From Escherichia coli (lineage in GTDB: Bacteria > Pseudomonadota > Gammaproteobacteria > Enterobacterales > Enterobacteriaceae), in the NCBI RefSeq assembly GCF_044324875.1, contig NZ_CP172185.1: 64,000 nt of DNA; one strand, given 5' to 3'. Shown here one piece after another: positions 57,265-57,678 of the stretch. The translations under genes were made by a program, and so were the position numbers. The stretch's first letter is position 1, and every line of letters begins with the position of its first letter. Below the pieces are notes generated by a model. It did not search any database. It was not told where the DNA came from and was given only the letters and a program-made list of their open reading frames with translations.

Positions 57265-57678
57265 GCGGTTTGCCAGCCTGACTCTTCAACGCAGGGAAGA
57301 TGCGGCAAACGGCAAACCTGCATACCAGCCAGCCTATATCAGGTATGCACAGGCCAATCATGAAAGAGGAGAGGCTTTATGTTCTGGAACCCTGAAGTAA
57401 TAACGACGACCGTAAAATCGCTTCGCATCACTCAAATTCCATTTAACTATTCTGGGTTTGAGGGATATACATAATTGACTTCAGCACCAGAAACAGCATA
57501 ACAAACTGTTTTAAATGGATATTAATCAAATGACGATTCAAACTCACAGTTATGAACTCAGTTTTGGTTCATAACTGTGTTAAACGCTGTCCATAAATCA
57601 CTCGATGTCACGTCTGTTGGTTCATGAACTGATCGTTCTAATTTTGTGATGTGCGTCAGGTTTTAGTGTTCAGTAATG

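Follow-up and report, generated by a model that had tools for sequence, protein, structure and literature searches.

The spacer beside a yneL remnant in Escherichia coli is a composite recombination seam adjoining dif, and its palindromes match the end motifs of an apparently undescribed family of mobile islands

The chromosome dimer-resolution site dif, the left half of which is bound by XerC and the right half by XerD, is universally conserved and essential for chromosome segregation, and its exploitation has been attributed mainly to Xer-dependent elements, the IMEX (integrative mobile elements exploiting Xer). No recombinase is encoded by these elements (CTXphi, VGJphi, TLCphi, the gonococcal genetic island and the E. 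coli CUS-1-type filamentous prophage), whose crossovers fall at the borders of the 6-bp central region and create hybrid dif sites. Two adjacent tyrosine-recombinase genes accompanied by small accessory genes are found in Tn554-type transposons and strand-biased circularising integrative elements, which insert site-specifically with a 6-7-bp core or footprint. A Tn6022-associated XerC-like recombinase acts with host XerD on a hybrid dif-like site (PMC11014353).

Here we report on a spacer in a 64-kb stretch of E. coli DNA (64,000 nucleotides; hereafter the window), which lies between a remnant of yneL and a gene of the carboxymuconolactone-decarboxylase family (CMD). An earlier note had drawn attention to a small open reading frame (ORF) and to palindromes in this spacer; its features are all present in the sequence, apart from two small corrections that concern a palindrome coordinate and the motif of the hairpin arms. 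Our comparisons show that the spacer is a composite recombination seam adjoining dif, with no gene in it. It is a mosaic in which the yneL remnant is followed by 55 bp from an alpha/beta-hydrolase gene, some 105 bp of native dif flank, ATTTAAC and 231 bp of the right end of an island. The joint explanation that we consider probable is that of a deletion scar combined with a dif-edge island junction, in which the palindromes would be relic, putative sites of a mobile-element end. The features are as follows:

57010..57277, minus strand: yneL remnant (AraC-family regulator), the last ~87 codons with the HTH domain; N-terminus deleted
57278..57338, plus strand: fragment of an alpha/beta-hydrolase gene (aa 226-245), from blastn and tblastn
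57343..57440, no strand: native dif-flanking DNA, from alignments and flank comparison
57379..57474, plus strand: 31-codon ORF MFWNPEVITTTVKSLRITQIPFNYSGFEGYT, a chimera in which native flank (to 57447) is joined to island end (from 57448)
57441..57447, minus strand: junction heptamer GTTAAAT (ATTTAAC on the plus strand), the attR-type junction of the island
57448..57678, minus strand: island right arm, the terminal 231 bp, conserved in Enterobacter sichuanensis to GTTAAAT
57545..57579, no strand: perfect 13-bp inverted repeat, two end-motif copies in inverted orientation, at -127 and -109 relative to the junction
57620..57629, no strand: palindrome GTTCATGAAC, a copy of the end motif at -182 from the junction
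57679..58482, minus strand: CMD gene, the outermost gene of the island, which extends beyond the end of the window

A recombination scar had been suspected where this locus departs from the K-12 arrangement, and alignments bear this out. The window, K-12, CLSC36 and NB4833 align up to ATTTAAC (57441-57447), past which K-12 and the island-free CLSC36 continue with ATAATATACATTATGCGCACC and the window diverges. ATTTAAC together with ATAATATACATTATGCGCACC is the reverse complement of dif, GGTGCGCATAA-TGTATA-TTATGTTAAAT, and the boundary is thereby fixed at 57447/57448, inside the XerD arm of the K-12 dif. The earlier note had suspected the scar, and it had missed the dif landmark, the separate deletion scar on the yneL side and the identity of 57448-57678 as an island end. 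The heptamer at 57441..57447 repeats the outer 7 bp of the XerD-binding arm of dif. The adjacent flank (57343..57440), which holds a Shine-Dalgarno (SD)-like GAGGAGAGG and codons 1-21 of the ORF, is common to K-12 (~85% identity) and island-free strains. A 501-bp query found 954 matching records among complete E. coli genomes, at a median of one place per genome, and was covered in full in only 465 of them; in the remaining records, about half of the total, the match mostly ends at ~57447. Mean identity of the spacer within E. coli is 98%.

The missing half of this arrangement is provided by CFSAN018748, which shows no difference from the window within the 501-bp query and has 99.8-99.9% identity over the remaining shared parts. 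Its order is hipA, a perfect dif, a 5,739-bp island, GTTAAAT and the yneL flank, and because of this arrangement we place the breakpoint of the window inside the XerD arm and read the heptamer as a duplicate of part of that arm. The 64-kb window contains no dif. Since all nine of its KOPS motifs (GGGNAGGG; 1-64000) lie on the plus strand and point rightward, dif is placed beyond coordinate 64000; the true dif is at the far end of the island, outside the window.

Variation in the native flank itself is uneven among E. coli alleles. The 5-6 nt just outside GTTAAAT (57435-57440) are hypervariable (CATGTC, GGAATT, GTGATT, TGGATT and CGCATC, in the window and at the equivalent positions of L004, L002, L103 and L110), and the next ~20 nt are conserved; the hypervariable bases could be footprints of repeated insertion and excision. 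The flank also contains the motif-like words GTTCTGGAAC (GTTCTTGAAC in K-12) and ATCATGAA, at 57381-57390 and 57357-57364, and in K-12 it matches 6 of the 9 positions of a left-end signature of related islands, TWASTTCAT at +17 (see below). The 'native' dif flank may be an ancient, decayed island end.

On the other side of this flank, the yneL remnant is fused to the hydrolase fragment by a ~2.76 kb deletion relative to an intact module. The latter is found on another island in PSJ-42 and comprises a 304-aa AraC-family regulator, two pseudogenes and the alpha/beta hydrolase. When the intact regulator, a paralogue, was searched against the window with tblastn it matched 57016-57276 through its residues 217-303 (91% identity), and at the DNA level 57009-57277 is 90% identical to the 3' end of its gene; PGAP annotates the remnant as a pseudogene missing its N-terminus. 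Collinear with this AraC match, blastn placed the 55 bp at 57284-57338 on L005 16190-16244 with 94.5% identity, and tblastn gave 85% identity over 20 aa of the hydrolase. The K-12 junction is different, only 57343-57447 being common to the window in that part of the spacer. The intact paralogue and hydrolase of PSJ-42 (L005; NZ_AP027652.1 1775161-1778605) belong to an island that adjoins intS/argW, and a mobile module may also be the source of the yneL locus beside dif. Relative to the window, CLSC36 lacks a segment of ~350 bp (56719-57070) that takes in the 3' end of the yneL remnant together with downstream sequence.

In CFSAN018748 the island runs from a LysR gene to genes for an aldo/keto reductase, a quinol monooxygenase and CMD. 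Its right arm (57448-57678) is 96% identical in Enterobacter sichuanensis up to AGAATAGTTAAAT, as far as GTTAAAT, and among 79 loci of other species the 231-bp stretch downstream of CMD homologues was found only in that species; the corresponding 3' flanks in other genera are different and lack both the motif array and GTTAAAT, several of them showing, on our reading of the sequences, GC-rich hairpins followed by T-runs. Ends identical in two genera favor past mobility of the CMD island. No recombinase gene or remnant was detected in the island with tblastn, and no terminal inverted repeats were found. In the window a 1,954-bp insertion relative to CFSAN018748 (60173-62126), the two ORFs of which encode a 340-aa transposase of the IS21 family and a 260-aa IstB helper ATPase, interrupts the aldo/keto reductase gene of the island. 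The 3' end of the CMD gene also occurs as a fragment on IncF-type plasmids (L090 2487-2767 on plasmid p786605_3, and two similar plasmids), where it stops exactly at 57620, the first base of GTTCATGAAC. We discarded a plasmid origin of the spacer, the plasmid matches consisting of this CMD fragment and a captured chromosomal segment.

The same spot is occupied in E. coli, Enterobacter, Pectobacterium, Yersinia and Acinetobacter by islands that carry two adjacent tyrosine-recombinase genes, with dif at one side and GTTAAAT at the other. In NB4833 the order is hipA, dif, CATGTTGATTGTTAACTTACTTCATGAAC, int1 (453 aa), int2 (512 aa), genes for a 787-aa and a 147-aa protein, both conserved and belonging to no known family, and cargo that includes an ABC-three-component defence system, followed by CTCAACATAA, GTTAAAT and the yneL flank. 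Both int1 and int2 are tyrosine recombinases (matches to PF00589 and NCBIfam models). A second such element, in ECCHD184 (L123), ends in the same CTCAACATAA and GTTAAAT even though its int1 is only 49% identical. We compared left ends from E. coli, E. hormaechei, Pectobacterium, Yersinia and Acinetobacter and the right-end junction at 11 loci. At 8 loci a host-specific, unrelated left flank gives way to dif and then to an identical element end, and the 11 loci of a related element share one right end and GTTAAAT, beyond which the flanks are of at least 8 kinds; the elements thus have the same precise target in unrelated hosts and a short direct repeat at their ends, as expected of attachment sites. 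Homologues of int1 (36-61% identity; Pectobacterium, Yersinia, E. coli and Acinetobacter baumannii) lie 91-145 bp from dif or an Xer site. TWASTTCAT stands at +17 to +25 past the XerD arm in each of the six independent int-bearing left-end types, and five of the six have an IHF-like site at +47/48, absent in Acinetobacter. At its dif-proximal end the CMD island likewise has TWASTTCAT at +17, a match for which we estimate a chance of ~1.5e-5 at that fixed position, and the IHF-like site is absent. An integrase gene adjoins one end in the related elements only, and because the recombinases are confined to these relatives we file the island of the window as a decayed or non-autonomous member, which would be mobilised in trans; it may also be cargo left after loss of the recombinase module, and no distinct kind of non-autonomous element.

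Two copies of the family adjoin Xer-type sites other than dif, at which only the XerD arm is perfect: TGTGCGCACAA-TCTATC-TTATGTTAAAT on an IncF plasmid (L092 3853-3880) and GGTGCGGGTAA-CAGTCA-TTATGTTAAAT adjoining a phage terminase gene (L120 1382-1409). E. coli H40, H58 and H76 were rejected as sources of further right ends, the first two being island-free sites and the third an L119-type element truncated by IS1. A literature search returned no published description of a dif-edge island family, within a coverage that is incomplete and leaves room for an earlier one.

Islands of this kind also occur in series. Two loci (L108 and L109) have the order dif, int element, GTTAAAT, CMD island, and in E. 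sichuanensis the GTTAAAT of the CMD island is followed by the decayed left end of another family member; the flanks of L104 and L105 also bear the left-end signature, and empty, island-free sites exist in other strains. From these orders, new insertions would seem to occur next to dif and to push older islands outward. Beyond GTTAAAT in L105 there is an 8/9 match to TWASTTCAT, then ~290 bp and a LysR gene, with no recombinase. The CMD island is arranged in the same way, a hint that LysR islands without a recombinase may recur as a class; L102 too has a LysR gene beyond GTTAAAT, but its flank matches the signature at only 2 of 9 positions. Filamentous IMEX-type prophages can precede family elements at the same dif, so that two kinds of dif-associated elements stack at one site. 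Such prophages, recognized by Zot and secretin genes, lie between hipA and a recombinase-bearing element in L124 (1355-19832) and upstream of int1 in L098 and L100, and in one case the prophage is a tandem duplicate.

Returning to the palindromes, the perfect 13-bp inverted repeat CACAGTTATGAAC-N9-GTTCATAACTGTG is present as first described, at 57545-57557 and 57567-57579. In the whole 64-kb window only two perfect inverted repeats have arms of 13 bp or longer separated by at most 30 nt, and this is one of them. The second palindrome, GTTCATGAAC, exists as well, one base to the left of the position first given for it (57620-57629 and not 57621-57630). A repeated GTTCAT(G/A)AAC half-site had also been proposed; the repeated motif is real, but the arms contain the 9-mers GTTATGAAC and GTTCATAAC, each one base short of the 10-bp palindrome, and not the 10-mer itself. 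For this reason GTTCATNAAC matches only once in the 64-kb window, and the suggestion that the motif be sought elsewhere thus yielded a single site there. The word exactly common to the motif copies is TTGGTTCAT; this end motif is short and AT-rich, and its background frequency is 0.33 per 300 bp. The palindromes do not recur in the many copies per genome that typify REP, BIME or ERIC sequences.

Motifs of the TTCATGAA type are found at comparable offsets in the ends of two recombinase-bearing islands at the identical site. In the CMD island (window and E. sichuanensis) they lie at -182, -127 and -109 from the junction, in NB4833 at -249, -237, -170, -108 and -29, and in ECCHD184 at -145, -97 and -29, with GTTCATGAAG at -108 and -97 in the recombinase-bearing elements. 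In these two right ends, the only independent recombinase-bearing ones compared, an ATGAAC half-site stands ~21 nt inside and further TTCATGAA-type copies extend out to ~-250. The terminal block of the CMD island, CTCAAACCCAGAATA (57448-57462, reverse complement), is degenerate, as is its innermost motif, ATTATGTAT (57467-57475, reverse complement). The 12-mer TGGTTCATGAAC at 57618-57629 recurs unchanged as one of the motif copies of the NB4833-type element. These arrays and the half-sites at fixed offsets are present in the arms, and their position and recurrence mark them as putative binding sites. The comparison thereby supports the earlier preference for a protein-binding motif over a terminator, in the sense of candidate binding sites. 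Probably, then, the palindromes are relics of arm sites at which the recombinases of the island family, or an accessory protein, would have bound, and the end motifs that they match would belong to a widespread, dif-edge-targeting and apparently undescribed group of mobile islands.

Several other readings of the spacer have to be weighed against this one. The 31-codon ORF is present at 57379-57474 as had been noted, and the claim of a strong SD-like sequence at a good spacing is also correct: GAGGAGAGG (57366-57374) ends 4 nt before the ATG, its GGAG core lies 7 nt upstream, and it is kept even in K-12. Nevertheless, we regard a real small protein as extremely improbable. ORFs of this kind are unremarkable here, since the surrounding 5 kb contain 67 of at least 25 aa, and this one straddles the junction, with codons 1-23 in the native flank and the 8 C-terminal codons (24-31) in the island, whereas in island-free strains the frame runs through dif, which replaces the island-derived C-terminus. 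Its ATG is AAG in K-12, NB4833 and Z1323CEC0015, the last of which carries the same island as the window, and between the two types of allele the codon differences are 6 non-synonymous (in addition to the loss of the start) against 2 synonymous. The exact peptide is absent from a collection of 15 billion proteins, and in structure prediction the region folds no more stably than shuffled sequence does. Because the start is lost in K-12-type alleles and no purifying selection is shown, so that neither start codon, frame nor selection behaves as in conserved small proteins, we judge the ORF to be spurious, a chance reading frame over the junction. An origin of the ORF and native flank as a relic of the hydrolase 3' end was tried and discarded: the resemblance of RITQIPFN to RMDKIPFD is insignificant (protein local alignment, p ~0.2), and the DNA alignment is at the null level. 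The hairpin, for its part, might be an RNA element of the minus-strand CMD operon, either a terminator lacking a U-tract, an aid to Rho termination or a stabiliser of the 3' end against exonucleases. On the transcribed strand it comes ~100 nt after the CMD stop codon, its folding energy is ~-21 to -23 kcal/mol with z ~-4 (-22.9 kcal/mol and z = -4.1 in one calculation), and the scan found no further terminator-like site between CMD and yneL. Against this, just as had been stated, no T-run follows on either strand (TTAAACG on the plus strand, AGTTTGAATC on the minus), and the terminator scan returned 0 sites. The stem is AT-rich, with 5 of 13 pairs G-C, so that both the G+C-rich stem-loop and the U-tract of an intrinsic terminator are lacking, and the hairpin sequence does not recur in the 3' flanks of CMD homologues elsewhere. 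Copies of its arm motif are also found without a pairing partner, at 57620 and within the ends of further islands, and the hairpin has no Rfam match (in a scan with Rfam 15 the only hit was a chance snoRNA match, E = 6.3, elsewhere in the stretch). An RNA element is on these grounds unlikely. We find it more doubtful still that the palindromes are operators, for the LysR regulator of the island or a host factor, governing transcription of the spacer without any connection to recombination. Dimeric regulators typically have sites of this kind, a 10-bp perfect palindrome and a 35-bp dyad, and the island does encode a regulator of the LysR type, but its gene is at the opposite end of the island, no promoter-like site was found by the scan of 56900-57800, and there is nothing intact downstream to regulate, yneL being a remnant. 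Moreover, the same motif keeps a fixed offset relative to the junction, and it turns up in the ends of islands whose cargo is wholly different and which have no LysR gene (NB4833).

A further alternative concerns the island as a whole, which could be an IMEX inserted by XerCD, with 57441-57488 as a decayed second dif (GGTGC..ATGTATAT..GTTAAAT on the minus strand). The island does directly adjoin dif without an integrase of its own, as the perfect dif abutting it in CFSAN018748 and the K-12 dif at the breakpoint indicate; three short dif-like blocks stand in the right order at 57441-57488; and filamentous IMEX-type prophages do sit at the same dif. Yet by our count the best register of this pseudo-dif matches only 5 of 11 positions of the XerC arm and 4 of 11 of the XerD arm, and ATTATGTAT aligns with the innermost end motif of the relatives and not with the dif centre, on which grounds we rejected it. 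The second junction is no hybrid dif, having neither a XerC arm nor a centre. An Xer product would retain TTATGTTAAAT at the junction, where the window has AATAGTTAAAT and the relatives have ATAAGTTAAAT. What is duplicated is the outer part of the XerD arm, 7 bp long and at a distance of 4 nt from the XerD cleavage position; inside it, the bases of the arm read AATA at the second junction here and ATAA in the relatives against TTAT in dif. As regards a recombinase the picture is divided, the CMD island having none and the elements with the same ends and target encoding two. An insertion by XerCD is in our view very improbable.

We propose instead that the islands enter by site-specific recombination with a crossover within GTTAAAT that would not be catalysed by Xer. 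As only GTTAAAT is repeated and the inner bases of the XerD arm differ, the crossover would fall inside the heptamer, 4 nt from the XerD cleavage position, and a crossover within the XerD arm would exclude an Xer product and with it membership of the IMEX. A 7-bp overlap region for the recombinases of the element itself would fit such a crossover. The symmetric STTCAT half-sites, set ~20 bp in from either end, and the additional right-arm copies would most simply be sites for the recombinases or for an accessory protein, new insertions next to dif would displace older islands outward into tandem arrays, and the CMD island would be a non-autonomous or decayed member of the family. Taken together, we tentatively advance a broader reading, to which we give somewhat less than even chances. 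It holds that a widespread family (Enterobacterales, Acinetobacter and probably other Gammaproteobacteria) with its own pair of tyrosine recombinases takes the outer 7 bp of the XerD half-site of dif as its insertion target, as well as Xer sites of plasmids and phages, leaving dif intact, forming tandem arrays and carrying defence and metabolic cargo. In the same reading the TTCATGAA-type arm motifs are putative binding sites, recombinase-less islands are mobilised in trans, and dif-bound XerD may serve as a landmark for target selection.

If this were true, self-encoded recombinases docking at the edge of the XerD arm would constitute a second, distinct way of parasitising dif. It would account for the hypervariable hotspot between yneL and hipA in E. 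coli, for the accumulation of defence systems and metabolic operons beside an intact dif, and for the spread of recombinase-less islands between genera. For annotation, the spacer needs neither a small-protein gene nor a terminator call, and GTTAAAT repeats and TWASTTCAT at +17 offer signatures for delimiting such islands. We conclude that the family merits experimental follow-up.

With regard to known systems, the Tn554-type and strand-biased elements differ from the present family in gene order and protein sizes; they are likened to it by description only, as a lead. The Tn6022 system resembles it in having an element-encoded tyrosine recombinase and a site with a perfect XerD half (PMC11014353), and the present elements likewise have a perfect XerD arm alongside even at the Xer-type sites other than dif (L092 and L120). 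However, the Tn6022 site is one of resolution or excision inside a Tn7-like island and is served by a single XerC-like protein (PMC11014353), whereas the present family has two larger recombinases (~455 and ~515 aa) and inserts beside the chromosomal dif, with a hypothetical role for XerD. The IMEX share the dif site, the tandem arrays and the one functional dif that is left, but what is repeated in the present family is the outer 7 bp of the XerD arm, and its autonomous members have a pair of tyrosine recombinases of their own. The islands that target tRNA and tmRNA genes and the integrative mobilizable elements with tyrosine integrases are alike in using a conserved short target, which the present family would likewise regenerate, and in a short direct repeat at the ends. 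They are further alike in having the integrase gene beside one of the ends, in IHF-like motifs and repeated motifs of putative arm type, in accretion in tandem and in derivatives that lack an integrase. What sets the present family apart from them is that its target is a protein-binding recombination site, dif, and not a gene, and that its recombinases are paired and followed by the conserved 787-aa and 147-aa proteins.
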